A stretch of DNA of 55,783 nt. Source: Candidatus Velthaea sp. GTDB taxonomy: Bacteria; Vulcanimicrobiota; Vulcanimicrobiia; Vulcanimicrobiales; Vulcanimicrobiaceae. A model generated the notes under the pieces. It had not been told where the DNA came from. It saw only the letters and a list, made by a program, of their open reading frames with translations, and ran no database searches. The position numbers and the translations under genes are program-made. Location: assembly GCA_046262475.1 (NCBI GenBank), contig JBHEMQ010000003.1, positions 1 to 55,783 on the forward strand, in the 5' to 3' direction. Each line of letters begins with the position of its first letter. Position 1 is the stretch's first letter. Of the stretch, positions 6,545 to 55,783 are shown one piece after another.

Positions 6545-6584
6545 GGCGGGGCTTTGCCGACGTTCGGACCGAAACCCTAGCTAA

Positions 6585-40139: not shown

Positions 40140-41588
40140 TTACGACGTCGCGGCGGCGGGCTGCACGCGGAACGCGCGCACGTCGCTCGCAGGCTGCGGC
40201 GCAAACGCGATGCGCGCGATGGCGATGAGGCCGCACGCGAGGCCGGCGAGCGTCGGCACGCGCAGCCATTGCATCATGACCGACGCGCGCATCAACGCCG
40301 CACGTGAAAACTCGCCCCAGCTGGCTTCCGCGAGCGCGTCGGGCGGGTACGCGTGCGGCGTGAAGGCAACTTCCGGCGGGCCGAGTCCCGCGCTCGCGAG
40401 CGCGAGCACCGACAGGCCGATGGCGGCGGCCACGAGCGCAAAAACCAATCCGGCTTTGCGCCCCAAGGTTCGTGCAGCGACCGCTCCCGCAAACAGCGGC
40501 GACGCGCCGGCGAGTAGCGATGCGCTCATGACGTTCCACGGGATCATCGCAAGGACGAGACCGCTGACGGCGAGCGCGCGCACCTGCGCGTGACGTACGA
40601 CGACGTACAGAATCGCCGGAAACGCGACCGCGATCTGCTGGAAATGGACGTGAACGCCGCCGAACACCGCGAACGCCGGCGGAACCAGCACGATCAGCGC
40701 ATCGTCGCCCGTCATGCGGCGCAGCCGAACCGCGGCCATGACGCCGAGCGCCGTGGTCGCCGCGAACATGATTTCGCCGGCGCGAATCGCCGCGGCCGCC
40801 GGAACGTGCAGCGACGTCAGAATCGAGGTGAGGCTGAACTGCCATTCGAACGCGTTGGCCAGCGCATGCGCCGGAACCACGTCGCGGACGTATTCGATCG
40901 ACGCCGGCACTCCGACGGCGGCGATGCCGGCGAGCGCGAACGCCGCACCGCAGAGCGCCAGCGGCAGGCGCGTGCGCGGAAGTGCCGCGAGCATTGCGGC
41001 GATGACCGGTAAGGCAACGTGCGGTTCGATGGTCGCGGCCGCAGCGCACGCGGCCGCGGCGTTCCAGCGCCCGCTGCGCGCGAGCAGCGCCGCACCCGCG
41101 AGGGCGAGAAACACGAACGGCAGCGGCTGGCCGACGTAATACGTGACCGTCGCCGTGATCGCGGCGAACGCGATGTTGAGCGTGCCGCTGCCCGCGCCGG
41201 TAATCCGCGCGAAGAGCGCGACGCTCGTGCTCATGGCGGAGATGAGCAGCAGTCCGTACACGGCCGCGGCGAGCGCGAACGGCAGCCGGCTCAGCGGCGC
41301 GAACAGCAGCAGCGCGTGCGGCGGAAGCGGTGCCGGCAGTGCGATCGCGCGCAGCGTCGCGGGCTGTCGGGGCGGGCCGGCGTTGCGTTCGCATTCGTGC
41401 AGCGGCTCTTGCCGATACGGGTCGGCGCCCTGGGCGATCGCGGCGCCGGCGCAATAAAACGCGCGAAAGTCGCCCATCAAATAGGTTGGGCCCGTCACGC
41501 CGTTGATCGCGATCATGGCGGCGAGCAGCAGCGGTGCGGCCAGCCATCCGGCGAGGCGCTGCGCCGATTCTCGCCGCCCGCGCGTCAT
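40140..41588 (-). CDS. DUF2029 / glycosyltransferase family 87-like polytopic membrane protein
   Basis: 482 aa and polytopic. The N-terminal loop motif GDFRAFYCAGAAIAQGADPY is typical of the GT87/DUF2029 family. The ATG overlaps the secretin stop (ATGA). Confidence 0.7.
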   Translation of the reverse strand: MTRGRRESAQRLAGWLAAPLLLAAMIAINGVTGPTYLMGDFRAFYCAGAAIAQGADPYRQEPLHECERNAGPPRQPATLRAIALPAPLPPHALLLFAPLSRLPFALAAAVYGLLLISAMSTSVALFARITGAGSGTLNIAFAAITATVTYYVGQPLPFVFLALAGAALLARSGRWNAAAACAAAATIEPHVALPVIAAMLAALPRTRLPLALCGAAFALAGIAAVGVPASIEYVRDVVPAHALANAFEWQFSLTSILTSLHVPAAAAIRAGEIMFAATTALGVMAAVRLRRMTGDDALIVLVPPAFAVFGGVHVHFQQIAVAFPAILYVVVRHAQVRALAVSGLVLAMIPWNVMSASLLAGASPLFAGAVAARTLGRKAGLVFALVAAAIGLSVLALASAGLGPPEVAFTPHAYPPDALAEASWGEFSRAALMRASVMMQWLRVPTLAGLACGLIAIARIAFAPQPASDVRAFRVQPAAATS

Positions 41589-43021
41589 CGCGTCAGAATT
41601 TCAGGCGTCATGATGAAGACCACGTCGGTCTGTGAGTTCTGGTAGCGCGTCGAGCGAAACAGCTTGCCCAGAATCGGAAGATCGCCGAGGCCGGGGATCT
41701 TGTCCACGAACCGCTGCTCTTGACGGCGCATCAGCCCGCCCATGACGATGGATTCGCCCGCTTTGGTGATCACGTCCGTTGAGAGCCGGCTCGTTTTCAG
41801 CGCCGGGATCGAGAAGCCGCCGATGGACACGGCGTCGGAGAAGTCGAGGTCGGAGACTTCCGGCGCAATCAGCGTTTCGACGCTGCCGCCGCCCAAGATC
41901 GTGGGCGTCACTTTTAATTTGACGCCGAAATCCTTATACTGAACGGCGATCTGCTGCGGGCCGCTGGCGTACGGAATCGGGATTTCGCCGCCGACGAGAA
42001 AGTCGGCCTGATGTCCCGGCATCGTGACGAGGTCGGGCGAGGACAGCAGACGCGCGTGGCCGTTGTTGATGATCATGTTGATCGTCGGCGCGAGTGTCGT
42101 GGTACGGAAAAACGAACCGATGTTCAACGCGTGGCCCGGCACGCCGGGGCCGCGACCGCGGGTGTCGATCGGCGCTTCCACCACCGGGAACTGCGGCGGC
42201 GCGAGCGTGAACGTTCCGTCGGTGTGAAAGACTGCCGACTGCAGGTTGATGCCGAGTTGACGGAGCGCGGTGTCGTCCACTTCCAGGATGTAGACTTTGA
42301 TATCGACTTGGCTGATCGTCGCGGTTTCGATGCGATCGATCACCTTGCCGTCGATGGCGAGGTACGGTCCCGCCAGCGCGCGGACGCGGCCCAGCACGTG
42401 CTCCGCGGTGGTGCGATCCTGCACCTGACCGCTGACGATGAGATTGCCCTTCACGTCACGGTCGACGCGCACGCCCGCGGTTCCGGCCGCGCCGCTCAGC
42501 TCCGACTGCAGCGGCCCGAGCGGCCGGGCGACCGTGACTGCGTTCACGACGGTAAATTTGCCGGCCGTCGCGACGGGCTCGAAGTGCGCGACGACTTCAC
42601 TCAAGTGAACGAGCCGCTCGCCGTTGGCGACCGTCCCGTTCAGCACGATCGAATGGTCGAACTCGTCCACGCGCACGTCCGGATCGCCGATCGCGCCTTG
42701 CAGCATCCGCCGTAAACTTTCCAGGCTTTGCTCGGTCACCGTCACGTCGTACGTGCGCAGGCCCGCGCCGCACCACACGAGCAGCGTCGTGCGGCCGGCG
42801 GTCTTCCCGTTGAGCACGATCTCACCGCGCCCGACGGGCACGATGCCGGCGATTTTACCGTCGCCCACGGCGACGCGCGTTACGCCCGGTGCGTGCACCA
42901 CCATCGATTGTCCCGTGCGAACGGTGAGCGGAATCGTCGCCGCCGCGTTCGATGCAAGCGGTGCGCAGAGCACGCTCGCCGCTGCAACCGCGGTCATGAA
43001 TGTGCGAAACCCGAAAGCCAC
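41585..43021 (-). CDS. cpaC: Tad/Flp pilus secretin CpaC/RcpA
   Basis: 478 aa with a signal peptide. It has the pilus-formation N-terminal region (LTVRTGQSMVVHAPGVTRVAVGDGKIAGI...GRTTLLVW). The C-terminal secretin motif is IPGLGDLPILGKLFRSTRYQNSQTDVVFIMTPEI. Confidence 0.9.
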   Translation of the reverse strand: MAFGFRTFMTAVAAASVLCAPLASNAAATIPLTVRTGQSMVVHAPGVTRVAVGDGKIAGIVPVGRGEIVLNGKTAGRTTLLVWCGAGLRTYDVTVTEQSLESLRRMLQGAIGDPDVRVDEFDHSIVLNGTVANGERLVHLSEVVAHFEPVATAGKFTVVNAVTVARPLGPLQSELSGAAGTAGVRVDRDVKGNLIVSGQVQDRTTAEHVLGRVRALAGPYLAIDGKVIDRIETATISQVDIKVYILEVDDTALRQLGINLQSAVFHTDGTFTLAPPQFPVVEAPIDTRGRGPGVPGHALNIGSFFRTTTLAPTINMIINNGHARLLSSPDLVTMPGHQADFLVGGEIPIPYASGPQQIAVQYKDFGVKLKVTPTILGGGSVETLIAPEVSDLDFSDAVSIGGFSIPALKTSRLSTDVITKAGESIVMGGLMRRQEQRFVDKIPGLGDLPILGKLFRSTRYQNSQTDVVFIMTPEILTR

Positions 43022-43178
43022 AGACGTCTACTCCTTGGGAAGACGGCGATTCGTCGTCCGTCGGATTCATTGAAGCAGATCGCCCCATTGTCGGTGCGTT
43101 ATCAGACCGTTGTCAGTTCGTCAATTCTTTACAAATGGGCTTTTCAGCGCTGCCGTTGATGTGTACGATGCGGCCACG
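43022..43178. promoter_or_regulatory. Divergent intergenic region between cpaC and the flp operon (candidate promoters)
   Basis: This is a 157-bp non-coding gap with a locally AT-richer stretch (ttatcagaccgttgtcagttcgtcaattctttacaaatggg). I cannot assign -35/-10 boxes confidently. Confidence 0.3.
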
Positions 43179-43610
43179 ATGCGTCAAAACAACCACCGTT
43201 CACTGGTCGTCTTCGCCGCCGCTGCGGCGGTGTTTGTTCCCCTAGCGGCTCGCAGCGCCGAGCCGCCGGCGACATCGTCGGCAATCACCGTGAGCGCTAC
43301 GCCGGCCGTCGGCCGCGAAGCGGTCATGATTGCCGGAAACGCACCGGCCGGAACGTCGCTCGAAGCCGCGTTGTACGCGCGATTTTCGCAAGACGTTCCG
43401 AACGTGCTCCTGAGCCGCCGCCCCGTCGCAACGGACGCGAACGGTCATTATGCGGCGACGGTTCCCATCGCGTCCGGTTTTTTCCGCAACGCGGTTGTGA
43501 CCGTGGTCATCAACTCGGTACCCGCGGGCGCCAGCGCCCGAACGAGCTTCGTCGTCGGAGCTCCCAACCTGCCGGCTCCGCCGGACGATATCCCCTCATC
43601 CGTGCGCTAG
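43179..43610 (+). CDS. Secreted hypothetical protein (single Ig-like/CarboxypepD_reg-like domain), first gene of the flp operon
   Basis: Track ORF 43110-43610 trimmed to the ATG at 43179, giving a signal peptide (MRQNNHRSLVVFAAAAAVFVPLAARSAEP). It also contains the motif TDANGHYAATVPI. Confidence 0.5.
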   Translation: MRQNNHRSLVVFAAAAAVFVPLAARSAEPPATSSAITVSATPAVGREAVMIAGNAPAGTSLEAALYARFSQDVPNVLLSRRPVATDANGHYAATVPIASGFFRNAVVTVVINSVPAGASARTSFVVGAPNLPAPPDDIPSSVR

Positions 43611-43631: not shown

Positions 43632-43793
43632 ATGTTCAACGCCATTCGCGCCACGCTCACCGATGACCGCGGCCAAGGTCTCGCCGAATACGGTCTGATT
43701 CTCGGTCTCATCGCCGTCCTTTCGATCGCCGCCGTGCTGTTCTTGGGCGGCCGGATCCAAGGCGTCCTCAGCAACGTCGGCAGCAGCATCTAA
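43632..43793 (+). CDS. flp: Flp/Fap family type IVc prepilin (53 aa; absent from the ORF track)
   Basis: AAGGAG at 43619-43624 lies 7 nt before the ATG. The translation is MFNAIRATLTDDRGQGLAEYGLILGLIAVLSIAAVLFLGGRIQGVLSNVGSSI. It has the Flp processing motif G/xxxxEY followed by a hydrophobic helix. Confidence 0.8.
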   Translation: MFNAIRATLTDDRGQGLAEYGLILGLIAVLSIAAVLFLGGRIQGVLSNVGSSI

Positions 43794-43820: not shown

Positions 43821-44021
43821 ATGAGTTCCATGTCGCCGCATCGCCGTCCGCGCGCCGCTTCCCAGCGGCGCGCGCCGGCGGTGCTCGACGATCGGGGTCA
43901 AGGACTCGGCGAGTACGCGCTGATCCTCGGTTTCATCGCGGTGCTGTGCGTCGCGGCCGCCGCCTTCGTCGGCACATCCATTCTCACTCAATACCAAAAC
44001 GTCTCGAGTGCTTATCCATGA
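43821..44021 (+). CDS. flp: Second Flp family prepilin with a long basic leader
   Basis: 66 aa: MSSMSPHRRPRAASQRRAPAVLDDRGQGLGEYALILGFIAVLCVAAAAFVGTSILTQYQNVSSAYP. It shares the DDRG/QGLxEY core with the first flp. Confidence 0.75.
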   Translation: MSSMSPHRRPRAASQRRAPAVLDDRGQGLGEYALILGFIAVLCVAAAAFVGTSILTQYQNVSSAYP

Positions 44022-44094
44022 TAACTGCTACGTTCATTTTGCTGACCGCGACGATCGTCGCCACGGCGCTCCGCAACGTCTCGAACAACTACTC

Positions 44095-44592
44095 ATGACC
44101 CTGCTCGCGCTCATGCTGCCCGCGGCGACGCTCGTCGCCGCGGCGATCGACGTTCGAGTGCGCCGCATTCCGAATGCGCTGACCGGCGGTCTCGCCGTTG
44201 CGGGCATCGCGTTGCACGTTCCGCAGGGCGTTTCGCCGACGGTGCTTGCGGTCGCCGCGATGCTGGCCGCGTTCGTTGCCGGTTCGCTCGCGTTTTCTGC
44301 CGGCTGGTTCGGCGGCGGCGACGTCAAGCTCATTGCGGCGTGCTGCGCCGTCGCGGGCTTTCCGGGAAGCGGCGCGCTGGTGCTGGAGATCCTCGCAGCC
44401 GGCGCGGTCCTCGCCCTCGTGTGGGCCGCTGCGGGCGGCCGCCTCTTTTCGCTCGTGCGCAGCACGACCGCGGTCGCGCTGCGCGGCGCGCCGCTGGAAT
44501 CCAACACCTTACCGTACGGCGTCGCGATCGCCGCCGGAAGCATCTTCTACACCGCTTCTTCGCTCGTGCCCGCTTTGAGGTTGCCCGTATGA
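44095..44592 (+). CDS. cpaA: A24 prepilin peptidase, CpaA/TadV type
   Basis: Track ORF 44008-44592 trimmed to the ATG at 44095. The protein is 165 aa and polytopic. The two catalytic Asp contexts are AAIDVRVRRIPN and GGGDVKLIA. Confidence 0.8.
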   Translation: MTLLALMLPAATLVAAAIDVRVRRIPNALTGGLAVAGIALHVPQGVSPTVLAVAAMLAAFVAGSLAFSAGWFGGGDVKLIAACCAVAGFPGSGALVLEILAAGAVLALVWAAAGGRLFSLVRSTTAVALRGAPLESNTLPYGVAIAAGSIFYTASSLVPALRLPV

Positions 44593-45458
44593 AAAATGGT
44601 CGCCGTCTGCCCCTCATCCTCGGGCTGCTCCTCGCGGTGGGCACCGGAGTGCTGCTGCTCAACTATCTCACGTCGCTCGGCGGGACGGCGTCCGCTGCCG
44701 TCAACATGCGGCCGGTGTTCGTCGCGGCGCGCGACATCCCGGCCCGCGCCTTGCTCACCGATGCATTCGTGCGTCAGACGATACGCCCAGTTGCCGAAAT
44801 CGACAACGATGCGGCCGTCAACCGGAAAGACATCCTCGGTAAGTATTCGCTCATCACCATTCCGGCCGGGTCCGTCGTCACCAAGTCGAAGATCGGCGAT
44901 GCCGGAGCGAATGCGCTTCCCGCACGCTTGCCCATCGGCATGCGCGCCGTCAGCATCTCGATCGATCGTGTCAAAGGCGTGGCCGGGCTCATCCAACCGG
45001 GCGACCGCGTCGACGTGGTCGCCGTCCCGCCGCGCGTCGGAAACGAAGTTCCGCACGCCTCCGCGATCCTGCGCGGAGCGCTCGTCCTCGCGATGGGGAA
45101 CGAGGTGGAAACAACCAGCGCGACGCCGAGCCCCGACAATCAAAACCTGACGACGGTGACGCTCGCGTTGACGCCGCAGCAAGTAAATCTGCTCGCGTCA
45201 GCGGATCTCAATACCACGCTGCGGCTTGCGCTGCGTCCGCCGAAAGAAGCGATTCGCGCCTTCCCGGCGGAGCCGCTCATGCTCGGCGTTCCGCAGCACG
45301 CCGCCGGCGCGCAGCCGATCGTCGCTCCGCCGCCGGGTCCGCCGGCGACGCCGGCGGTGGTCGCCGCAACGCGCGTCCGCACCGAACCCGTCCGCCGCGA
45401 CGGCATTACCGTGATCGACGGCGACCGCGTCACCGAGGGCGGCACCGCCAAACCATGA
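44589..45458 (+). CDS. cpaB: Flp pilus assembly protein CpaB/RcpC
   Basis: Track ORF 44340-45458 trimmed to the ATG at 44589 (ATGA overlap with cpaA). It has an N-terminal TM helix, a SAF-like segment (VFVAARDIPARALLTDAFV) and an RcpC-like segment (GLIQPGDRVDVVA). Confidence 0.85.
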   Translation: MKNGRRLPLILGLLLAVGTGVLLLNYLTSLGGTASAAVNMRPVFVAARDIPARALLTDAFVRQTIRPVAEIDNDAAVNRKDILGKYSLITIPAGSVVTKSKIGDAGANALPARLPIGMRAVSISIDRVKGVAGLIQPGDRVDVVAVPPRVGNEVPHASAILRGALVLAMGNEVETTSATPSPDNQNLTTVTLALTPQQVNLLASADLNTTLRLALRPPKEAIRAFPAEPLMLGVPQHAAGAQPIVAPPPGPPATPAVVAATRVRTEPVRRDGITVIDGDRVTEGGTAKP

Positions 45459-47575
45459 GCTTGCGCGTATTCGTCGTCGTCGGTGCCAAAGGCGGCGTCG
45501 GCACGACCAGTGTCGCCATGCAACTGGCGGTCGACATGCCGTCCAGCGGTCAGCGATTCATCGTCGATGCGGATCTGGCGGGCCGCCGCAGCTTGGCGAC
45601 GTGGTACGACGTTGCCAAGGAACTCGACATCGCGCGCGTGCCCGGCTCGTGCGCGATGGCGCGCAAAGACGGCCTGTGCGTCGTCGAGCTCGCGCGCTCG
45701 TACGAGGACGGATTCAACGTCAGCCCGGAAGCCGTCGAAGAATTCGCCGAATCGCTGCCGCCGGACGGTCTCGTCATCGTCGACGCTCCGCAGCCGTTCG
45801 CGGCGACGGTGCGTCCGTTCATGATGAACGCTGCGAAAATCGTCGTCGTCACCGAACCCACGCTGCTCGGCGTTGGTTCCGCGCATGCGATGTTATCCGC
45901 GATGGACCGCTTTGGTATTCCGGCGGCGCGCATCGCTTTTACGCTGCAGGATCTGCGCGGCGCCGCCGAATTGCGTGCCCGCGAGATCCAAGAATCGTTG
46001 AATTACGCGATCGCCGCGGAGCTGCCGCCGGTACGCGACCGCAATTGGCCGCGCGCCTTCGGCCGGCTCCGCGACACGCTCGCGGCGACGCCCGAGCTTC
46101 CGATCATGACGCTGCGCGCATCCACCGCGCGCCCGATCGGCGACCGGCGCCAGGCGCGGCGTCCGACGCTCGCCGCCGTCGAGCCGGCGCACGTTGCCGG
46201 CGCGGCGTCCGTCCGCAGCGTCACCGGAGAAGTCGCGATGCGCGGAATAGGCGCATCGCCGCAGACGGCGGCGGCCGAGCGGCTCAAAACGGAATTGCAT
46301 GCGGCAATGCTGACGAAGATCGATTTCTTCGCGGCGGCACGCGCGCATACCGATGCGCAGAAACTCGCCGAACTGCGCCAACAAGTCAATGCGATCGCGG
46401 ACGAATTTCTCGCGGTGCGTAAGGACATCACGTCGGCCGAACAGGCAGCGCGTCTCCGGCACGAAGTGATCGAAGAGGCGCTCGGCCTCGGACCGCTCGA
46501 GAGTCTGCTCGACGAACCGGACATCAGCGAAATCATGGTGAACGGCCACGCGAACATTTTCGTGGAGCGCCGCGGTAAAATCGAGCGGACCGCCAAGCAA
46601 TTCGTCGACGACCGCCAAGTGCGGCTGGTCATCGAGCGGATCATCGCGCCGCTCGGCCGGCGCCTCGACGAATCGAGCCCGATGGTCGATGCGCGGCTAC
46701 CCGACGGCTCGCGCGTGAACGCGATCGTCGAGCCGCTCGCAATCGATGGACCAACCCTAACCATCCGGCGCTTCGGTACGAAGCGCTTCGGCATCGAGGC
46801 GATGCTCAAAGCCGGCTCGGTGACCGAACCGGTCGTGGACTTCTTGCGCGCGGCGGTCGAAGCACGCCTCAACATTCTCGTGAGCGGCGGCACCGGTTCC
46901 GGCAAAACGACGCTGCTCAACGCGCTCTCGGGATTCATTCCGAAAGACGACCGCATCGTGACGATCGAAGACGCCGCCGAGCTGAAGCTCGATCAGCCGC
47001 ACGTCGTACGCTTGGAATCGCGGCCGCCCAACCTCGAAGGGAAGGGCGCCATCACGATTCGCGAGCTGGTCCGCAACTCGCTGCGGATGCGGCCCGACCG
47101 CATCGTCGTCGGCGAGTGCCGTGGCGGCGAGGCGCTCGACATGCTGCAGGCGATGAATACCGGCCACGACGGTTCGCTGACGACGGTTCACGCCAATACG
47201 CCGCGCGACGCGCTCTCGCGCGTGGAGACGATGGTGCTGATGGCCGGTTTCGACTTGCCGGTACGCGCCATTCGCGAGCAAGTCGCCGGCGCGGTGAATC
47301 TTATCGTGCAAGTCGCACGCCTGCGCGACGGCTCGCGACGCGTCACCAGCGTCAGCGAAGTGGTCGGCATGGAAGGCGACGTCGTTACGATGCAGGAGTT
47401 GGTGCGCTACCATCAACGCGGCGTGGATTCGCAGGGCAAGGTCATGGGCGAATTCGAGCCGTGCGGCGTGCAGCCCAACTGCCTGCTGCGCTTCGAGGAG
47501 CTCGGCGTCGCGTACGATCCCGTCACCTTCAACGCCTCACCATCGCGACGTGCGGAGGCCGCATGGCTGCGCTAG
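45455..47575 (+). CDS. cpaF: Fusion protein: CpaE/TadZ-like atypical ParA/MinD ATPase domain plus CpaF/TadA secretion ATPase
   Basis: This is a single 706-aa frame with no stop. Residues 1-220 carry a deviant Walker [16 protein letters not shown] and LVIVDAP. The C-terminal 445 aa carry [22 protein letters not shown], Walker [27 protein letters not shown] and the His box [18 protein letters not shown]. The ATG overlaps the cpaB stop. Confidence 0.85.
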
Positions 47576-48420
47576 CGCCGTACGCCATTCTCGGCGGCGC
47601 GGTCGGCGCGATCGCGCTGCTGTTCGCCGGCTTGTGGGAACCGCTGTTCGCGCGCGCCGGAAAAGTCGGCGTGCGCTTCACCGCCGGCCTGGAGGCCGCG
47701 GGCATGAAAACCGAACCCCAGCAGTTCGTTCTCGTGCTTGCCGGCACGGGACTGGCGGTGTGGATCGCCTTGCTGCTCGTGATTCGGCCGACGCCGCTCG
47801 TCGCGGTCGTGCTGCTGGTCGCGATGCTGGCGTGCACGGCCTACGCCGGGCGATTGTATTTGCGCAGACGGTGCGCGAAGCGCATCGAGGCGTTCCGCGA
47901 TCAGCTCGAAGGCGCGCTGCGCACGCTGGCTGGCGGCGTCCGCGTCGGGCTCGGCATCCGTCAGGCGCTCGTGCTCACGAGCGAGCAAAGCCGCGAGCCG
48001 GCAAAGTCGGAATTCATGCGGGTTGTGGGACTGAGCAACGTCGGGCTGTCGATTTTGGACGCGTTCGATCAACTCGCATTGCGCATGACCAATACCGAAA
48101 CCGCCGTTCTCGCGCGCGTGATCCGCGTGCAGTCGCAAACCGGCGGCGACCTCGGCAGCGTGCTCGAGGGGCTTGCGGGCACGATTCGCGACCGCCGCCG
48201 CCTGCGGCGCAGGGTCAGCGCGATCACGGCACAAGGCCGGGCCACCGCGTGGCTCCTCGGATTGCTGCCTCTGGCCGTCGGCGCCTTCGTGCTGACGCAA
48301 GCCGAACTGCGCGATGCGATGCTCGGCAGCATCATCGGCCGCACGTTTCTCGGCATCGCGTTGTTTCTCGATGCCCTCGCGGTCTTCACCCTCGGCAAAA
48401 TTGCGAGAATCGATCCGTGA
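47563..48420 (+). CDS. tadB: Tad pilus inner-membrane platform protein TadB (T2SS F family)
   Basis: Track ORF 47116-48420 trimmed to the ATG at 47563. The protein is 285 aa. It has a TM helix, a cytoplasmic T2SSF domain (FRDQLEGALRTLAGGVRVGLGIRQAL) and C-terminal TM helices. Confidence 0.85.
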   Translation: MAALAPYAILGGAVGAIALLFAGLWEPLFARAGKVGVRFTAGLEAAGMKTEPQQFVLVLAGTGLAVWIALLLVIRPTPLVAVVLLVAMLACTAYAGRLYLRRRCAKRIEAFRDQLEGALRTLAGGVRVGLGIRQALVLTSEQSREPAKSEFMRVVGLSNVGLSILDAFDQLALRMTNTETAVLARVIRVQSQTGGDLGSVLEGLAGTIRDRRRLRRRVSAITAQGRATAWLLGLLPLAVGAFVLTQAELRDAMLGSIIGRTFLGIALFLDALAVFTLGKIARIDP

Positions 48421-49271
48421 GTGCCGTTTCGCCATTCAGCATTTCCATTTGCGCCGCCGTCTCCGCGTTCTTGCTATTCCTGTCGGCGTTTCCGGCGCGC
48501 AGCCCGATGGCCAAGCGTTTGAAGAAGCTCGAGCGGGTCAGTGAAAAAACCGTCTCGCAACGCGTTACCGTCATTGAGAACATCATCAGCAAAGAGCGCC
48601 ACTCGCGCCTGCAGCAGCGCCTGATCGAGGCCGGCTGGTACGGGGTGACGCCGCTCGCGATGGTCGCACGCGGTGTCGGAGCGCTCGGCATCGGCGTCGT
48701 CGCCGCCACGCTCTTCCTCGTCTTTGCAAAGAACAACGCGCTCGGCATGCTGGTCGGCGGATTCACGGCGCTGGTCGCGTGGCGCATTCCGAGCATGATG
48801 CTCGCGCGAGCCGTCAAAGCGCGCAAAGAAAACATCCAGCGCGAACTGCCGGACTTCTTGGATCTGCTCGCGACGACCGTGCAGGCGGGCCTCGCGCTCA
48901 ACGCAGCGCTGGTGCACGCCGCCGACGCGACGCACGGCGCCCTCAAAGCCGAAATTCAATCGATGCTTGCGGAGGTGCGCCTCGGACGGCCGCGCGCCGA
49001 TGCGTTGCAGGCGATGGCCGAGCGCATCAACGAAGAAGCCACGAGCACGACGGTCACCGCGCTCGTGCAAGCCGAGCGGCTCGGCTCGAACTTGAGCGAC
49101 GTGCTGCAAGAGTTGGCCAAGGAAACGCGCGACCGCCGTTGGATGCGCGCGGAGGAAAAAGCCGCGCAGCTTCCCGTGAAGATGATCTTGCCGATGGCGC
49201 TCTTCATGATACCGTCGCTGTACATGATGATCTTCGGGCCGGTCGTCGCGCGCCTCGTGCTTCGCCAATGA
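48417..49271 (+). CDS. tadC: Tad pilus inner-membrane platform protein TadC (T2SS F family)
   Basis: Track ORF 47550-49271 trimmed to GTG 48417 (GTGA overlap with tadB). The T2SSF domain is LPDFLDLLATTVQAGLALNAAL...LPVKMILPMALFMIPSLYMMIFGP. Confidence 0.85.
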   Translation: MSAVSPFSISICAAVSAFLLFLSAFPARSPMAKRLKKLERVSEKTVSQRVTVIENIISKERHSRLQQRLIEAGWYGVTPLAMVARGVGALGIGVVAATLFLVFAKNNALGMLVGGFTALVAWRIPSMMLARAVKARKENIQRELPDFLDLLATTVQAGLALNAALVHAADATHGALKAEIQSMLAEVRLGRPRADALQAMAERINEEATSTTVTALVQAERLGSNLSDVLQELAKETRDRRWMRAEEKAAQLPVKMILPMALFMIPSLYMMIFGPVVARLVLRQ

Positions 49272-49885
49272 TGACGGCGGCGGTGACGGCGCTTTGCGCG
49301 CTGCTCTTCGGCGCTGCGGCGTTCGCGGGAACGCTGCTCGCGCAACTGTTGTGCGGCGGCCGCGTTCCCTACGACGATGGTCCCGCCCCGGTCGCATTTC
49401 GCCGCCGCGCGTTCGCGCTCGCCGGCGCCTGCGCCGGCAGCGCCGTTGCGCTGCACGGCGTCTCCGCGCCGCACGTCGCACTGCTGCTCATCGTCGTGAT
49501 GGCGCTCGCCGGCTGTGCCGCGGCGGATTTCGCGTGCGGCATGCTGCCCAACGTGCTCACCCTCGGACCGCTCGCGTTGATCGTCGCAGTCGCGCTTGCG
49601 GCGCACGATTTGGTACCGGCCTTCAGCGCCGTCTTCATCGCTGCGCCGTTTGCCGCGGCCGCGGTGTTCTCGCGCGGGCGCGGCATGGGCTGGGGGGACG
49701 TAAAGCTCGCAGCGCTCGGCGGCGCCGTCCTGGGCGCGCGTGATGCGACGCTCGCTTTGACGGTCGCGGCGCTGGTCGCCTACATCGTCGCGCGACGAGC
49801 CGGCGCCGCGCGTCGTCCCGTCGCCTTCGGACCCTACCTTGCTGCTTCGATCGTCGCGATGCTGGCGGTCGTGAGGACGAATTAA
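49268..49885 (+). CDS. Second A24 prepilin peptidase (PilD-like core, no methyltransferase domain)
   Basis: Track ORF 48779-49885 trimmed to the ATG at 49268 (ATGA overlap with tadC). The protein is 205 aa. Asp contexts are AAADFACGMLPN and GMGWGDVKLAALGG. The C-terminal motif is VAFGPYLAAS. Confidence 0.75.
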   Translation: MMTAAVTALCALLFGAAAFAGTLLAQLLCGGRVPYDDGPAPVAFRRRAFALAGACAGSAVALHGVSAPHVALLLIVVMALAGCAAADFACGMLPNVLTLGPLALIVAVALAAHDLVPAFSAVFIAAPFAAAAVFSRGRGMGWGDVKLAALGGAVLGARDATLALTVAALVAYIVARRAGAARRPVAFGPYLAASIVAMLAVVRTN

Positions 49886-49886
49886 G

Positions 49887-50246
49887 ATGCCGCTGCTGCG
49901 CAATGCGACCACCGGAACGATCGTCGCTACGCGAATCGATCCGCTCTCCACATTCTTCCAGCGCGCGGTAGGATTGCTTGCGCGTACGGCGATGCGGCCC
50001 GATGAAGGCGTCTGGATCCGCCGCTGCGGCGCGATCCACACGATTGGGATGCGCGTTCCGATCGACGTCATTTTCGTCGACGGCGACAGCCGCGTGATGC
50101 GCACCGTGGCCGATGTGCCGCCGAACCGTTTGGCGCTCAGCTGCCGCGGGGCGGAAGCCGTCGTCGAACTCGGCAGCGGTGCCTTGCGCGAGTGCGACGT
50201 TCTGCCGGGAGATACGCTGGAGCTCGTTCCGGGAAAGTTCGGTTAG
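49887..50246 (+). CDS. DUF192 (COG1430) family protein
   Basis: 119 aa. It starts 1 nt after the peptidase stop. The motif is AVGLLARTAMRPDEGVWIRRCGAIHTIGMRVPIDVIFVDGDSRV. Confidence 0.75.
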   Translation: MPLLRNATTGTIVATRIDPLSTFFQRAVGLLARTAMRPDEGVWIRRCGAIHTIGMRVPIDVIFVDGDSRVMRTVADVPPNRLALSCRGAEAVVELGSGALRECDVLPGDTLELVPGKFG

Positions 50247-51616
50247 CGCGGCTTGACGGCGATGGTGCGCAGCACCGTTTCTTCCGATCCGTTGCGCGTG
50301 TAGCGCACGACGAGCGAGTACGTCTGCGTCTTGGGCTCCGCGGGCACGGGCAGGACGGCCCGGACGGCGCCGGGCGCAACGGCGGTTTCGGCCAGCGTTT
50401 CGCCGGTCTCGTCCTGCAATTCCACGTGCGTGGGATTCGCGCGCGGCGTTAGCCGCAAGCGCAGCGGGCGCCCGGCCACGGCGCGGCCGTCGAGTGCGAC
50501 GATTCCCGCGCTCGCGGCTTGGGCGGAAACCGCGTCGACGGGCGTGACGGCTTCGGGCCGCGCCGTCTCATCGGGCGCGGTATCCGCAACGGCGGCCGGT
50601 GCGAGCACGACGCTAGCGACCGCAGTACTCGAACCGCGGCGCGCGACGATCTTTGCGACGAGCTGCGCGTTGCGATACGCCGCGCCGACGCGGATGCGGC
50701 TCGTTCCGACGTGCGCGAAGGGCGCCGACGCAATGCGTTTGCCCGTCATATCCTGCAGCGCGATCGTACCGTTGTCCGCAACGGCCATGTACGAAGCGAG
50801 AATCGTCTCGCCGGCGGCGTCTTGGTCGCGCCGCACGGCAAACGAGAGCACGCGTGCGGGAGCGCTCGGCTTCGCGACCGGCGCGGGCTCGGAAACCGCG
50901 AACGATGCGTCGGCCACGACGGCGCCCAGGGGACCGTGTTGCGTCACCGCGACGGAAATCCGGCGCCGGGCCGATGCCGCGGGGAGCATCAGCGGGATTT
51001 CACCCGTGGGCGCGGCGAGCGTTCCGGCAGCGATCGGTGTGCCGTCGTCGAATGCGGCGGCGTACGCGACTGCGCCGTAGCCGCGTGTCACGTACGCAAC
51101 GCGTGCCGCCGATCCCGCGACGGCGCGTGCGGGCGGCGTGATGAGCGGCGTTTGCGGAAGCGCCGTCGCGGCGAAGGCGCCGCCCAAGGCGACCATGCCG
51201 GCGCCGAGCGTTATGCCGGCGATCTTGAGCGCAGGCGTGCGGCGCGCCCGCACCGGCTTGGGCGCTTCGACGCGCAGCAACACGCCATGCGAACGAATTT
51301 CCAAATACACCGACTCATATGCGGCGCCGCGGGCACGCGGAACGCCGACGCGGGCGCTGCCGACGGCACCCGGAGCGACCGCCAGACCACCGAGTTCGAC
51401 GGCGTCGCCGCCGCTAAGAACGCCGACGAGCCGCCCGGTCACGTCGCGTTCGAGCGAGGCGAGCCGAAGCAGATACATCGCGGACCCGCTGCGCCGGTCG
51501 GCCGGTGAAATCCGGACATCCGCGGCGATGCCGTCCGAGGCGAACTGCACGACATTCGACCGCGCGTGTGCGGACGGTACGAGCGCGTTCGCTTCGGGCT
51601 CGCGCGCGGCGATCAT
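50243..51616 (-). CDS. Single-pass membrane protein: cytoplasmic beta-rich N-domain, TM helix, about three extracytoplasmic Ig-like repeats
   Basis: Track ORF 50243-52567 trimmed to the ATG at 51616, which overlaps the regulator stop (ATGA). The TM helix is ALKIAGITLGAGMVALGGAFAATAL. The upstream 317 codons of the track ORF are Arg-rich and overlap the regulator gene in another frame. Confidence 0.55.
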   Translation of the reverse strand: MIAAREPEANALVPSAHARSNVVQFASDGIAADVRISPADRRSGSAMYLLRLASLERDVTGRLVGVLSGGDAVELGGLAVAPGAVGSARVGVPRARGAAYESVYLEIRSHGVLLRVEAPKPVRARRTPALKIAGITLGAGMVALGGAFAATALPQTPLITPPARAVAGSAARVAYVTRGYGAVAYAAAFDDGTPIAAGTLAAPTGEIPLMLPAASARRRISVAVTQHGPLGAVVADASFAVSEPAPVAKPSAPARVLSFAVRRDQDAAGETILASYMAVADNGTIALQDMTGKRIASAPFAHVGTSRIRVGAAYRNAQLVAKIVARRGSSTAVASVVLAPAAVADTAPDETARPEAVTPVDAVSAQAASAGIVALDGRAVAGRPLRLRLTPRANPTHVELQDETGETLAETAVAPGAVRAVLPVPAEPKTQTYSLVVRYTRNGSEETVLRTIAVKPR

Positions 51617-53118
51617 GCCGTCGCCGCGTCGGCTTCCGCGAATGCCTCGAGCGCGTGCCGCCGCGCATCCTCGGCGTTGCAGGCGATCAATTCGCGCGCA
51701 TACTCGCGAGCGGTTGCGAGATCGCCGAGGGCCGCGTAGAGTTCCGTCAACCGCGTGAGCGCGAAAACGTTGTTGCGCCGAAGGGATTCCGCGTCGCGCG
51801 CGAAGCAGCGCTCGGGAGCCTCCATCGCGAGCAGATGATCGCGGTAGATGCGATGCGCCGAACGGTAGTGATGCTTCGCACCTTCCACGGCGCCGATCGC
51901 ATCGTCGAGACGCCCCTGTTCGACGTGATCCATGAAGCGCCGCGCGTCGACGGCCACGGCGGTGAGGTCGAGGCGAATGTCGCCGGCGGTATCGAAATAG
52001 CGCCGTGGATCGATATCCGGTACCGCCTCGGAGATCGAGCGGCGGATGCGGCTCAGCGTTATGCGCAAACCCTGTGCGGCGACCCGGCGATCCGTGCCGG
52101 GCCAAAACGCTTGCAGCAAACGTTCGCGCGTGGTGCGCCCTTCGGCGGCGAGCGCGACGAAGACGAAGACGTGTTCGTCGCGGCGACGCGCGAAGACGAC
52201 GGGCCGGCCGCCGATTTCGCAGCGGAAGCGGCCGAGGACGTTCAACATCATCAAGCGCGCGACCGAGGTCGCAGCGGTTTCCGGCTCGGCACTTCCGGCA
52301 GGCGCGGACAGGCGCGCGAGGATGCGGTACGGTCGCACGGCGCTGCGCGTGCGCACGAGCGGCAATCCGACTTGTTCCAAACGGTCGAGCTCGAACCGGT
52401 CCTCGCCCCCGCCGCGCAGCAATCGCTGAAACGAAGCGAAGGCGTCGGCGTCCTCGTGGCGTTCGCTGGAGACGAATTCCAGCAGCAAGTGGCCGTTGCG
52501 TTCGCACCAGCGGTTGAATGCGTCGCGCAGCCGGCGCCCGGTTTCGGCCGCATCGCGCACGATCCATTGAGCGGCCACGGGCCAGCCTTCCGTGTCGTGC
52601 AGCAACTGCGCGATGTCGTGCTCGTCGTGTGCGACCTCGAAGGCATCGGCGAGAGCTGCGAGTTCGGCCGAGTCAAACGCAAGGTCCACCGCCTGGAATG
52701 CGGTCGCGAGGCCGCGCGCGAGCAGCGCGTGGGCGTGTAGCCGGCGCCGCGAACGCCCGGCAAGGATCAAGCGCGGCCGCACAGCGCCTTCAGCGATGTC
52801 ATCGACGAGTTCTTGGTAGGCCTCGGGAGCGGCGCGGTCTGCGCCATCGAGGATCACTTCATCGGCGGGACGGCTGTCGTCCAGCATGCGCTGCAAGGCC
52901 GCGCGGTCCGCGCCGGCGGGAACGCGGACGTACGCGACGCGCTCGGGATGCCGCGCGGCGTAGTGCTTCAGCGCGAGCGTTTTGCCTGCGCCCAACGGGG
53001 CGACGACGATGCGGACGGCCGCGTGTCCGGCGGCCTCGAACCACGCGGCAACTCTGGGGCGGTCGATCTCGCCGCGAGATCGTGCGCAACTCGGCGCTTC
53101 AACCTCTGCACAGGGCAT
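51613..53118 (-). CDS. Transcriptional regulator: N-terminal P-loop NTPase plus C-terminal SARP-type winged helix and BTAD domain
   Basis: 501 aa. Walker A is VVAPLGAGKT and Walker B-like is EVILDGAD. The wHTH is LNVLGRFRCEIGGRPVVF...RERLLQAFWPG...LRITLSRIRRSI. The BTAD-like helices are VDARRFMDHVEQG...LTELYAALGDLATAREYAREL. Confidence 0.75.
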   Translation of the reverse strand: MPCAEVEAPSCARSRGEIDRPRVAAWFEAAGHAAVRIVVAPLGAGKTLALKHYAARHPERVAYVRVPAGADRAALQRMLDDSRPADEVILDGADRAAPEAYQELVDDIAEGAVRPRLILAGRSRRRLHAHALLARGLATAFQAVDLAFDSAELAALADAFEVAHDEHDIAQLLHDTEGWPVAAQWIVRDAAETGRRLRDAFNRWCERNGHLLLEFVSSERHEDADAFASFQRLLRGGGEDRFELDRLEQVGLPLVRTRSAVRPYRILARLSAPAGSAEPETAATSVARLMMLNVLGRFRCEIGGRPVVFARRRDEHVFVFVALAAEGRTTRERLLQAFWPGTDRRVAAQGLRITLSRIRRSISEAVPDIDPRRYFDTAGDIRLDLTAVAVDARRFMDHVEQGRLDDAIGAVEGAKHHYRSAHRIYRDHLLAMEAPERCFARDAESLRRNNVFALTRLTELYAALGDLATAREYARELIACNAEDARRHALEAFAEADAATA

Positions 53119-53237: not shown

Positions 53238-54320
53238 CTAAATGAGCGAGATCGTCGGTTTCAGTTTCGGCTGTGCTGCCAAGACGCGCTGTAGCGACGC
53301 GGCCAGTTCGTCGAGCACCGGATCGTCGATTTCCTCGACCCGGCCCGCGTCCGCGGATTCCACGAGGCGCGGGTCGATCGGCAAACGCGCGAGCATCGGC
53401 GCGCCGGCCAGTTCGGCGACTTGATCGGCATAGGACGGACCGAATACGTCATACCGCCGGCCCGTATCCGGCGCGACGAAGTACGACATGTTTTCGATCA
53501 CGCCCAAAATCGGTTTTTTGAGTTGGTGGATGAGATTCGCTGCTTTGCGCACGATCATCGTCGCGAGGCGCTGCGGCATCGTGACGAGGATGACGCCGTC
53601 GATATCGAGCGATTGCAGAACGGTCAGCGGTGCGTCCGACGTGCCGGGCGGAAGGTCGATCAGCAGCACGTCGAGGTCACTCCACAACACCTGTTCGTAG
53701 AATTGGCGGATGACGCCGGAGAGAATCGGGCCCCGCCAAATCATCGCGGTGTCTTCTTTATCGGTGAGCAGGTTCGAGCTGACGATCTCGATCGCCGAGC
53801 GGGAACGCGCCGGCACCATGAGCGGTTTCGGCTGCTGACCCGCGGGCACGCTCGGATCGCTTTCGATCGCGAGCGGCGTCGTGAGGCCGAAAAGCCGCGG
53901 GATCGACGGCCCGGTGATGTCCGCGTCGAGAATGCCGACGCGTTTGCCGGCGCGCCGTAGGCCGACCGCAAGCAGCGCGGTTGTGAGCGATTTGCCGACG
54001 CCGCCCTTGCCGGACATCACGGCGACGACGTTCTTGAACGACGCGCGGCGCGCGAACGCGCCGGGCGCCTTGCGCGCCGGCTGCCGGTCCTCGTTCATGA
54101 TCGACGGCACGCGACCCGACAAGCGCGCCTGCGTCAGCGCCGCGAGAATCGGCTCGACGCGCAAGCCGTGCGATTTCGCACCCGCGGCGATGGTTTCGTA
54201 CTTGTTCACGCCGCAGCCCGAGCATTTGAGCCCGAATTCTTGCAGCACGTCCTGGGCAATCGGCAGCGCGTCAACCAGTGCGCGAATGTTCGTTTCCGGA
54301 GTGATAGTGAATGTCGTCAT
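53238..54320 (-). CDS. apbC: Mrp/NBP35 (ApbC) Fe-S cluster carrier ATPase with an N-terminal DUF1858-like domain
   Basis: Track ORF 53238-55430 trimmed to the ATG at 54320 (MTTFTITPETNIRALVDALPIAQDVLQEFGLKCSGCG). Walker A is VMSGKGGVGKS. Other motifs are LLIDLPPGTSD and IENMSYF. Confidence 0.9.
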   Translation of the reverse strand: MTTFTITPETNIRALVDALPIAQDVLQEFGLKCSGCGVNKYETIAAGAKSHGLRVEPILAALTQARLSGRVPSIMNEDRQPARKAPGAFARRASFKNVVAVMSGKGGVGKSLTTALLAVGLRRAGKRVGILDADITGPSIPRLFGLTTPLAIESDPSVPAGQQPKPLMVPARSRSAIEIVSSNLLTDKEDTAMIWRGPILSGVIRQFYEQVLWSDLDVLLIDLPPGTSDAPLTVLQSLDIDGVILVTMPQRLATMIVRKAANLIHQLKKPILGVIENMSYFVAPDTGRRYDVFGPSYADQVAELAGAPMLARLPIDPRLVESADAGRVEEIDDPVLDELAASLQRVLAAQPKLKPTISLI

Positions 54321-54479
54321 GCGCGCGAGCCTCAGCCTTTCAAAGGGAGCAGGCCCACGCCGCCGCCGGCAGCGCTTATCGCCCGCCATCATAACATCCG
54401 CGCCGCTCGCATTGGGTGCATGGGCGCCGAACGGACCGGTCGCAGAAGAGCCGAGCGGCGCCGCGCGCAAACACGCGCA

Positions 54480-55238
54480 ATGGTGCCGTGGATCGTCGCC
54501 GCAACCAGCGCCGCCGTTTGGTGCATCGCCGTTCGCCGCTACCGGCGCCGCTACGGGCGTTCCGCCGGGTTCGCGCGCGGCGCGGCCTTTGCCGCCGGAA
54601 CGGTCGTGGCGGCCACCGCGGCGGGACCGCCGCTCGACGTGCTCGCCGATGCGTCGTTCGCGTGGCACATGGTGCAGCACATGGTGCTGCTGCTTGTCGC
54701 GCCGCCGCTGGTGTTGCTGGCGCAGCCGCTCGAATTGGCGCTGGCGGTGCTGCCGCCGCGCGTCGCACGCCGCCTCGTCAGCGCACTGCGCGTGCCGCCG
54801 CTCGCGTGGTTCGCGCATCCGGTCGTCGCGTTTGCGCTTTTTTTTGCCGTTACATGGCTGGCGCATTTCACGGGTTTGTATGAAGCTGCGGCGGAGAACG
54901 AAGCCGTCCATGTGGCCGAGCACGCGCTTTTCCTCGCCGCCGCGTTTGCGTTTTGGGCGCCGGTGACGGGTGCCACGCCGTTTCCGCACGCGCTGGCGTT
55001 TCCGGTGCGCATATTTTACCTCTTTGCCGCAATGCCGCCGAGCGCGTTTTTGGGCTTCGTCCTGTTCGGATTGCGAGCGTCGCCCTATCCGCATTACGCG
55101 AACGTTGCCGACGTGCACGCCGGCGGCGAGATCATGTGGATCGCGGGCGGCGCGGCGATGTTCGCCGCGATGATGCTCGTCGCGGCGGCGTGGGCGCGCA
55201 GCGACCAGCGGTTTGCAGCCGAATCGCGCGGAGGTTAG
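54480..55238 (+). CDS. ctaG: Cytochrome c oxidase assembly factor CtaG (caa3-type, membrane)
   Basis: Track ORF 54168-55238 trimmed to the ATG at 54480. The motif is FAWHMVQHMVLLLVAPPLVLLAQP...AEHALFLAAAFAFWAPV. The protein is polytopic. Confidence 0.8.
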   Translation: MVPWIVAATSAAVWCIAVRRYRRRYGRSAGFARGAAFAAGTVVAATAAGPPLDVLADASFAWHMVQHMVLLLVAPPLVLLAQPLELALAVLPPRVARRLVSALRVPPLAWFAHPVVAFALFFAVTWLAHFTGLYEAAAENEAVHVAEHALFLAAAFAFWAPVTGATPFPHALAFPVRIFYLFAAMPPSAFLGFVLFGLRASPYPHYANVADVHAGGEIMWIAGGAAMFAAMMLVAAAWARSDQRFAAESRGG

Positions 55239-55239
55239 T

Positions 55240-55783
55240 GTGGAACGCGGTCTCGTTCTGCTTGCTGCGGCACGTTTGCGCATCGGCGGCCGGCGTCTGC
55301 GCGCGCTTGCACTCGGCGACGCGCAGGCGGTGCGCGGGTTCGTGCAAAGCGATTCGGCCCTACGCCTCGCCGAGGCGAGGCGTGACGCGCGCGCCGATGG
55401 CGCGCTTCTCGAGCGGTGCGGGGCGCGCATCGTGACGCTCGCCGACGATGACTATCCCGCCGGCTTGCGCGACCTGACCGGCCCGCCCGCCTTTCTCTGC
55501 GTGCGCGGAATGCTGCCGCGCGGCGGCATTGCGATCGTCGGCGCGCGCAATGCGAGCGCCGATGCCGCGGACTTCGCGTACGAGCTGGCGCGCCGGCTCG
55601 ATACGCCGCTCGTGAGCGGTTTGGCGCGCGGTGTGGATGCGGCCGCGCACCGCGGCGCGCTCGCGGCGGGCGCGCACGACGGCCGCGCCGTTGGCGTCCT
55701 GGCGCGCCGCGCCGAACGCACGATGACGGCGCCACTGGACGGGCTGCAGGCGCGCCTGGCGGCCAGCGACCGCCCGCCTCCGG
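55240..55783 (+). CDS. dprA: DNA processing protein DprA/Smf (3' end outside window)
   Basis: It is not in the ORF track because it has no stop in the window. GTG 55240 lies 1 nt after the ctaG stop. My translation contains ARIVTLADDDYPAGLRDLTGPPAFLCVRG, IAIVGARNAS and LVSGLARGVDAAAHRGAL. Confidence 0.7.
   Translation, partial: MERGLVLLAAARLRIGGRRLRALALGDAQAVRGFVQSDSALRLAEARRDARADGALLERCGARIVTLADDDYPAGLRDLTGPPAFLCVRGMLPRGGIAIVGARNASADAADFAYELARRLDTPLVSGLARGVDAAAHRGALAAGAHDGRAVGVLARRAERTMTAPLDGLQARLAASDRPPP

Follow-up and report, generated by a model that had tools for sequence, protein, structure and literature searches.

The stretch of DNA considered here (55,783 nucleotides; contig JBHEMQ010000003.1 of GenBank assembly GCA_046262475.1), termed "the window" in the following, derives from Candidatus Velthaea sp., a member of the Vulcanimicrobiaceae within the phylum Vulcanimicrobiota, and harbours a compact Tad/Flp pilus operon. 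Two flp pilin genes, the prepilin peptidase gene tadV, cpaB, the fused gene tadZA, the platform protein genes tadB and tadC, a second prepilin-peptidase-like gene (tadV2) and a DUF192 gene follow one another on the forward strand, the secretin gene is oriented divergently, and this order is conserved in related loci (Table 1). The subject of this work is the fused gene tadZ::tadA (cpaE::cpaF), which extends from an ATG at position 45455 to position 47575 on the forward strand and comprises 706 codons without an internal stop. Its ATG overlaps the stop codon of cpaB (ATGA). The gene very probably encodes a single-chain "TadZA" protein, which is composed of a receiver-less TadZ/CpaE-type ATPase domain, a disordered linker of ~45 amino acids (aa) and a complete CpaF/TadA motor ATPase.

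Spurious long open reading frames (ORFs) are frequent at the GC content of this sequence (67%), and one of them directly adjoins the fused gene. The coding potential of the gene was therefore tested directly, using the frame-specific GC content at third codon positions (GC3). The frame of the fused gene shows the highest GC3 from position 45455 to ~47500, including the part that encodes the linker, and thus ORF and GC3 bear out across the whole frame what an initial annotation, made from the letters of this DNA alone, had described as one uninterrupted frame of 706 codons. In an AlphaFold2 model of the full-length protein, which was based on an alignment of 40 sequences, residues 1-222 and 267-695 are folded, separated by a stretch with a predicted local distance difference test (pLDDT) score of ~30 (residues 223-266). 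This disordered stretch, rich in Ala, Pro, Ser, Gly and Arg, corresponds to the Ala/Arg-rich linker of about 40 aa that had been proposed in the initial annotation.

The N-terminal domain ("N-domain") is predicted to adopt a MinD/ParA fold. Modelled alone with AlphaFold2 it reaches a pLDDT of 88 and a predicted template modelling (pTM) score of 0.86, and a Foldseek search with this model retrieves the structure 3EA0 as the best match in the PDB, followed by FlhG and MinD (all with a template modelling (TM) score of ~0.6). 3EA0, a protein of 245 aa from Chlorobium tepidum, is recorded as a "ParA family ATPase" and has the Walker A sequence KGGDGGS. The ATPase domain of the fused protein begins at residue 3, which leaves no room for a receiver domain (ARD). 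Its Walker A motif (residues 10-19) contains the signature lysine K12 and is devoid of the lysine of the GK[ST] motif. Fold model and motif are in keeping with the earlier description of a ParA/MinD fold with a Walker A motif lacking the GK[ST] lysine and without a receiver domain. Among 105 full-length homologues, on which all column counts given here are based, the consensus of the motif is GAKGGVGA[TS]; position 17 is Ala in 101 of them and Thr in the window protein alone. K12, D38, D40 and D110 show no or hardly any variation within the family, and they align to the Walker A signature lysine, the Switch I DxD motif and the Walker B aspartate of MinD, respectively.

For TadZ proteins, a Walker A consensus K/RGGXGXS/T has been published (bioRxiv 10.64898/2026.07.08.737194). 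The N-domain harbours a lysine-less variant deviant Walker A of this type (K/RGGxGx[S/T]), and it also occupies the position that is characteristic for TadZ/CpaE, directly upstream of tadA/cpaF, i.e., between cpaB and the CpaF domain. The receiver domain, which likewise is a mark of TadZ/CpaE, is absent, as it is from 3EA0, from the stand-alone relative P0211 introduced below and from the TadZA protein of Bdellovibrio.

A profile of the N-domain was searched against 1.84 billion representative proteins, and the matches display a sharp break. Those stronger than ~1e-18 represent the fused family itself, and the next tier (1e-15 to 1e-10) consists mostly of proteins of ~390-425 aa, which match at residues ~130-350 and are built from an N-terminal receiver-type domain and a MinD-like/CpaE_hom domain. 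The lysine-less [KR]GGxGx[ST] motif is found in 61 of 88 relatives of this tier, the canonical lysine in ~18 of the 88. The genomic context was checked for four relatives. The genes for P0192 and P0191 belong to canonical Tad loci, where they are flanked by secretin or tadE genes on one side and by cpaF on the other. P0211 is a stand-alone protein of 253 aa without a receiver domain; its gene follows RcpC and shares 4 nt with the cpaF gene behind it (order RcpC-[P0211]-cpaF-tadB-tadC), and this arrangement is the unfused counterpart of the window layout. P0221 resides outside any Tad locus, and hence the next tier is not pure.

Canonical Tad loci (L077, L079, L081 and L082) served as comparators. 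In an hhalign comparison with a profile of 23 canonical two-domain CpaE-type proteins the N-domain profile aligns with a probability of 99.9% (E 6.6e-35), and the alignment spans query residues 3-223 and template residues 139-389, i.e., the whole ATPase domain. The canonical CpaE-type profile also finds 3EA0 as its best match in the PDB (E 1.5e-57 versus 8e-38 for MinD). Judged from the sequence, the N-domain is a TadZ/CpaE-type ATPase domain, and most of the proteins closest to it beyond the family are of the CpaE type. On plasmids, tblastn found nothing that matches the N-domain.

Several observations weigh against this reading of the gene. By fold, MinD and FlhG nearly tie with 3EA0. The best match among NCBIfam models, CpaE_hom_Actino (E 1.7e-9), scores 37 bits and falls far below the cut-off of 154, and the Pfam ParA matches, at 28-30 bits, are confined to residues 5-49 (PF10609: E 4e-7, residues 5-52). 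The pTM of the full-length AlphaFold2 model is 0.48, and the placement of the two domains relative to each other is without confidence. The only cultured member of this lineage has been reported to form pili that were attributed to type IVa genes, with no discussion of Tad. The structure of Eubacterium rectale TadZ (ErTadZ) reportedly revealed ATP binding and nucleotide-sandwich dimers in a protein without the P-loop lysine, and the expectation that ATP may be bound without this lysine here rests on that structure. The ErTadZ structure itself (3FKQ) was missed by the N-domain profile, by the canonical CpaE profile and among the top 50 fold matches; since the canonical CpaE profile also fails to find it, its absence, which might be counted on the same side, is uninformative.

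Some of these points would suit a different view of the N-domain, namely that it represents a generic MinD/ParA module, which was recruited independently of TadZ/CpaE, or a degenerate scaffold that does not bind nucleotides, and that its role is unrelated to Tad positioning and concerns, e.g., the regulation or stabilization of the hexamer. The MinD, ParA and CpaE family models indeed score alike, and all weakly, on the first 260 residues, the P-loop lysine is missing, and neither the relatives with a canonical lysine nor P0221 conform to the TadZ pattern. However, most of the nearest relatives are of the CpaE type by architecture, Walker A motif and locus position, and the domain sits in the exact cpaE slot, in the absence of any other TadZ/CpaE-like gene within +/-7 kb in the related loci or elsewhere in the window. 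Moreover, the (near-)invariance of K12, D38, D40 and D110 speaks against a dead scaffold, and we consider this alternative unlikely. MinD proteins are marked by a deviant Walker A GKGGVGKT with the P-loop lysine, an amphipathic helix at the C-terminus that targets the membrane, and minC/minE as neighbours. An identity as MinD was rejected, given the lack of the P-loop lysine, the disordered linker and CpaF that follow the domain, and the tad genes in the neighbourhood.

The C-terminal part of the TadZA protein is a complete CpaF/TadA motor, as had been put forward for the last 445 aa, and family profiles and the alignment to CpaF agree on this point. T2SSE/TadA-type models match at residues ~312-640 (PF00437, E 2e-64; TIGR03819, E 1e-102), and the C-terminal 445 aa align to residues 65-476 of the 501 residues of Caulobacter CpaF (PDB 9e24; E 3e-127). 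The motif GSGKTT, E554 and H571/H579 are invariant in the family. Accordingly, the features that distinguish TadA/CpaF are present: a T2SSE domain with Walker A/B motifs and Asp/His boxes, adjacent to tadB and tadC, each of which encodes one T2SSF domain. The likeness to Caulobacter CpaF/TadA (PDB 9e24, 8rkd) extends over the C-terminal 440 aa and includes every ATPase motif. Yet Caulobacter CpaF possesses a disordered N-terminal tail of its own (~64 aa), and since the alignment begins only at its residue 65, the TadZ-like domain and the linker replace this tail in the protein described here.

Other proteins contain CpaF modules in tandem. P0098, P0107, P0111, P0113 and P0118 (775-832 aa) as well as P0003, P0004, P0007 and P0010 (1141-1156 aa) are composed of two or three complete CpaF modules, which are ~53-58% identical to the CpaF part of the window protein, and none of them carries a TadZ-like domain. 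These proteins are encoded on metagenome contigs that reach 715 kb in length, and by their sequence such chains would amount to covalent dimers or trimers of the normally hexameric motor.

The linker between the two domains varies in length from 10 to 63 aa (median 38; 105 homologues), and the reading frame is kept in every case. The ATPase domain is immediately followed, where the disordered region begins, by a conserved motif, LRxSxxxPIGDRR, which the initial annotation had missed. L220, R221, S223, P227, G229 and R232 are each conserved to at least 90% across the fused family. The motif had no match in the non-family relatives searched, and nothing like it was seen in the C-terminal tails of CpaE or the N-terminal tails of CpaF from the canonical loci L081 and L082. 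By these comparisons LRxSxxxPIGDRR is specific to the fused family, and it can reasonably be proposed that a partner may dock at this motif.

The linker also contains an ATG at position 46238 (codon 262), which is preceded by GGAGA at 46226-46230 with a spacing of 7 nt. On these grounds it had been suggested that the gene may yield two products, the fusion and a stand-alone CpaF of 445 aa. The ATG and the GGAGA are indeed present at that spacing, and a start within the disordered linker, just before the predicted helical bundle of CpaF, would plausibly produce an intact CpaF. The further comparisons speak against the proposal, however. Of the 105 homologues, 1 has a Met at codon 262, namely the window protein itself; the column falls into the least conserved stretch of the protein, and 46 of the sequences have a gap there and 38 a Phe. 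A Shine-Dalgarno-like 4-mer is located upstream of 5 of the 50 in-frame internal ATG, GTG or TTG codons, which matches the chance expectation of ~8% for each, and the genuine starts in the operon lack a strong Shine-Dalgarno sequence and employ coupling through overlapping stop and start codons. A dual-product gene is thus very unlikely.

The TadZA fusion is not confined to the window. In a database of 5.8 billion clustered proteins, more than 100 clusters of 670-730 aa match the query over its full length (100% coverage) and are 56-86% identical to it; the named sources of the full-length clusters are Candidatus Eremiobacteraeota, Elarobacter, Vulcanimicrobiaceae and Velthaea. When the N-domain profile was run against GTDB genomes, with each species represented by one genome, 39 family loci were obtained, nearly all of which are labelled Eremiobacterota, Vulcanimicrobiota or WPS-2, with N-domain identities down to 34%. 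N-domain and CpaF domain reside in one frame without a stop in ~33 of the 39 loci. The exceptions are found at contig ends (L021 and L034) or carry the two domains in different frames (L008, L030, L038 and L039), and in the latter four the neighbouring genes (cpaB, secretin, tadV2) are fragmented as well, which indicates indel-rich assemblies. Even though these four loci are what would be expected if separate cpaE-like and cpaF genes had been merged by an indel that was introduced into the linker during sequencing or assembly, there is hardly any chance that the fusion is such an artefact, given their broken neighbours, the many samples and independent clusters, the species genomes that keep one frame and the GC3 support for a single frame throughout. 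Since the frame is always kept despite a linker of 10-63 aa, the fusion is genuine and under selection. Of the checks that had been proposed along with the initial annotation, family profiles on both halves, an AlphaFold model and a search of related genomes yielded two domains and a recurrent fusion. Across the genomes compared, the fusion is fixed throughout the Eremiobacterota (Vulcanimicrobiota), where a compact Tad/Flp operon has no TadZ besides it.

Some database entries of the family have already been double-named automatically as "CpaF family ATPase/MinD superfamily P-loop ATPase". As the TadZ part scores below the family cut-offs, the proteins are annotated as "CpaF", and therefore the Tad loci of the phylum can look as if they were devoid of TadZ.

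One fused gene of the Eremiobacterota family was found under a different label. Locus L036 (JAYTXC010000060.1, match at 4910-7006) belongs to a metagenome-assembled genome (MAG) named "Rhodospirillales bacterium", and its gene order is the same as in the Vulcanimicrobiota locus L033: cpaB, tadZA, T2SSF genes and a secretin gene downstream on the forward strand. The presence of this gene in a MAG labelled as Alphaproteobacteria may be due to wrong binning or labelling, or else to horizontal transfer.

The architecture as such is known. In Bdellovibrio bacteriovorus a "TadZA hybrid protein" has been described, which comprises a receiver-less TadZ, a flexible linker and TadA; its TadZ part, along with the linker, binds the polar hub protein RomR, the protein localises dynamically, and the fusion had been noted in earlier work cited there (bioRxiv 10.64898/2026.07.08.737194). 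Compared by its published description, the Bdellovibrio protein has a like layout and is also encoded in the main tad locus, and hence the novelty implied by the initial annotation was overstated: the same TadZA layout has already been reported and partly characterised. The two systems differ in their setting, since Bdellovibrio belongs to the Bdellovibrionota and possesses dispersed tad genes without TadV, whereas the Eremiobacterota/Vulcanimicrobiota encode the fusion in a compact locus with tadV, tadB and tadC. The 150 best-ranked relatives of the N-domain include dozens of unfused CpaE-type proteins and no fused one that lies outside the family; this is a hint that the fusion arose independently of that in Bdellovibrio. 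What is new here is the fixation of the fusion in another phylum, the compact and complete locus and the family-specific linker motif. The literature searched on Eremiobacterota makes no mention of Tad systems.

With the canonical TadZ/CpaE proteins (Aggregatibacter TadZ, Caulobacter CpaE, Eubacterium rectale TadZ) the N-domain shares the MinD/ParA fold, a Walker A motif without the P-loop lysine and a location just upstream of tadA/cpaF. In contrast to these proteins, it has no receiver domain and is covalently joined to TadA. Stand-alone receiver-less TadZ-like ATPases (3EA0, P0211) have in common with it a MinD/ParA-type domain of ~245-255 aa and a Walker A motif of the form KGGxGx[ST], and P0211 even shows the gene order of the window; yet both are separate proteins and lack LRxSxxxPIGDRR.

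The fusion most likely would have originated by the loss of the stop codon between overlapping genes for a receiver-less TadZ and TadA. Each CpaF hexamer then would carry six TadZ domains on tethers of ~40 aa, and the two ATPases would be held at a fixed 1:1 stoichiometry. The conservation of the signature lysine, the Switch I residues Asp38 and Asp40 and the Walker B residue Asp110 suggests that the TadZ domains may bind ATP and form nucleotide-sandwich dimers. Arranged as a peripheral cytoplasmic layer around the motor, they could link the motor to the steps by which the machine is recruited and positioned. The architecture, its conservation, the family relationships and the locus are shown by the present data, and ATP binding, dimerisation, ring formation and a role in positioning are inferred. 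The earlier notion of a "hard-wired hub-motor unit" holds as a reading of the architecture, which is conserved across the phylum, but not its alternative of a gene with two products.

By cryo-electron tomography (cryo-ET) of Caulobacter an outer cytoplasmic ring has been observed, which is gone in cpaF and cpaG mutants, and the authors speculate that CpaE is contained in it, though no density was assigned to CpaE. By analogy, the fusion is consistent with a location of CpaE in an outer ring around CpaF. A more far-reaching interpretation can be offered tentatively, and as a whole it is rather doubtful: the fusion would be independent of that in Bdellovibrio and represent a phylum-fixed "Rosetta stone" for a direct 6:6 contact between TadZ/CpaE and TadA/CpaF; TadZ would form the outer ring that cryo-ET revealed, and its domains might be arranged as three ATP-dependent dimers gating the engagement of the motor, and LRxSxxxPIGDRR would be a new docking element for a polarity or regulatory partner that replaces the receiver domain.

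At the Tad machine, TadZ/CpaE has so far been known as a "localisation factor". A phylum-wide fusion argues that the TadZ ATPase domain acts beside the motor at a 1:1 ratio, and that the receiver domain is dispensable or replaceable. The Eremiobacterota provide a second system for the coupling of positioning and motor, which is evolutionarily distant from Bdellovibrio and includes a cultured relative, Vulcanimicrobium alpinus. The fusion thus contributes comparative evidence for direct TadZ-TadA coupling, which would not surprise a specialist who is aware of TadZA.

Table 1. Coordinates of the fused gene, its parts and the surrounding Tad/Flp genes in the window.
Feature	Position	Strand	Evidence or remark
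tadZ::tadA (cpaE::cpaF) fused gene, 706 aa	45455..47575	+	ORF, GC3, homologues
TadZ/CpaE-type atypical ATPase domain, residues 1-222; MinD/ParA fold, no receiver domain	45455..46120	+	
Variant deviant Walker A, residues 10-19	45482..45511	+	ParA/MinD signature Lys K12 kept, P-loop Lys replaced
Motif LRxSxxxPIGDRR, residues 220-232	46112..46150	+	Conservation, low pLDDT
Disordered Ala/Pro/Ser/Gly/Arg-rich linker, residues 223-266	46121..46252	+	pLDDT ~30
GGAGA, 7 nt, ATG (codon 262)	46226..46240	+	Not conserved, chance level
Complete CpaF/TadA motor ATPase, residues 267-706; helical N-terminal bundle, N-terminal domain (NTD), C-terminal domain (CTD)	46253..47572	+	PF00437 E 8e-65; TIGR03819 E 4e-103
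CpaF Walker A (GSGKTT), residues 478-486	46886..46912	+	Invariant in family
Secretin (CpaC/RcpA-like), divergent	41585..43021	-	PF00263 E 8e-41, T2SS-T3SS_pil_N
Conserved secreted hypothetical, upstream of flp	43110..43610	+	No family match; signal-peptide-like stretch after Met24
Flp pilin 1, 53 aa, G/LAEY motif	43632..43793	+	PF04964 E 8e-6, under gathering score
Flp pilin 2, 66 aa	43821..44021	+	PF04964 E 1.4e-3
Prepilin peptidase, TadV/CpaA-like (copy 1)	44008..44592	+	PF01478 E 2e-14
CpaB/RcpC	44589..45458	+	TIGR03177 E 1e-40; PF16976 E 2e-25
TadB-like platform protein, 285 aa	47563..48420	+	GC3 frame; PF00482 E 2e-16
TadC-like platform protein, 254 aa	48507..49271	+	PF00482 E 7e-24
Second prepilin-peptidase-like gene (Peptidase_A24)	49268..49885	+	PF01478 E 2e-8
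DUF192 protein, conserved last operon gene	49887..50246	+	PF02643 E 4e-15
STAND-type NTPase + BTAD transcriptional-activator-domain protein	51613-53118	-	

Gene starts in the operon were corrected by frame-specific GC3. The likely start of cpaB/rcpC is the ATG at 44589, which overlaps the tadV stop codon, and the last 13 nt of the fused gene are shared with tadB. An ORF of 573 aa (47550..49271) with one T2SSF match was considered as a TadB-TadC fusion and discarded, as translation, GC3 and Pfam identify its first ~320 codons as out-of-frame Arg/Ala-rich noise. The position of the secretin gene is syntenic in the loci L001-L039. The presence of two Peptidase_A24 genes in one Tad operon (44008-44592 and 49268-49885) is a further feature of the locus, and both genes are syntenic across the Eremiobacterota loci. 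Likewise, the secreted hypothetical protein (43110-43610) and the DUF192 gene (49887-50246) are syntenic in most of the related loci, and both products possibly are lineage-specific Tad accessories.

The only other ParA-like gene of the window is located towards its end (53238..55430, reverse strand) and encodes an Mrp/NBP35-type protein of 730 aa, which also contains a DUF1858 domain and a long N-terminal region without matches. This protein was dismissed as a second TadZ, since it belongs to a family unrelated to Tad (PF10609, E 1e-80).

CpaE-like genes also occur in Bradyrhizobium loci (L040-L076), and in the one locus examined for this aspect (L041) cpaB and a secretin gene are located upstream. 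Using tblastn, no cpaF was found on the same strand in these loci, including ~7 kb downstream. In Bosea and Beijerinckiaceae, unlike in the Bradyrhizobium loci, cpaF directly follows the CpaE-like gene.

Finally, the gene for the protein with a STAND-type NTPase and a BTAD transcriptional activator domain lies downstream of the operon, and it recurs at that place in many related loci. Based on its domains and location, this protein is a candidate regulator of the Tad operon.

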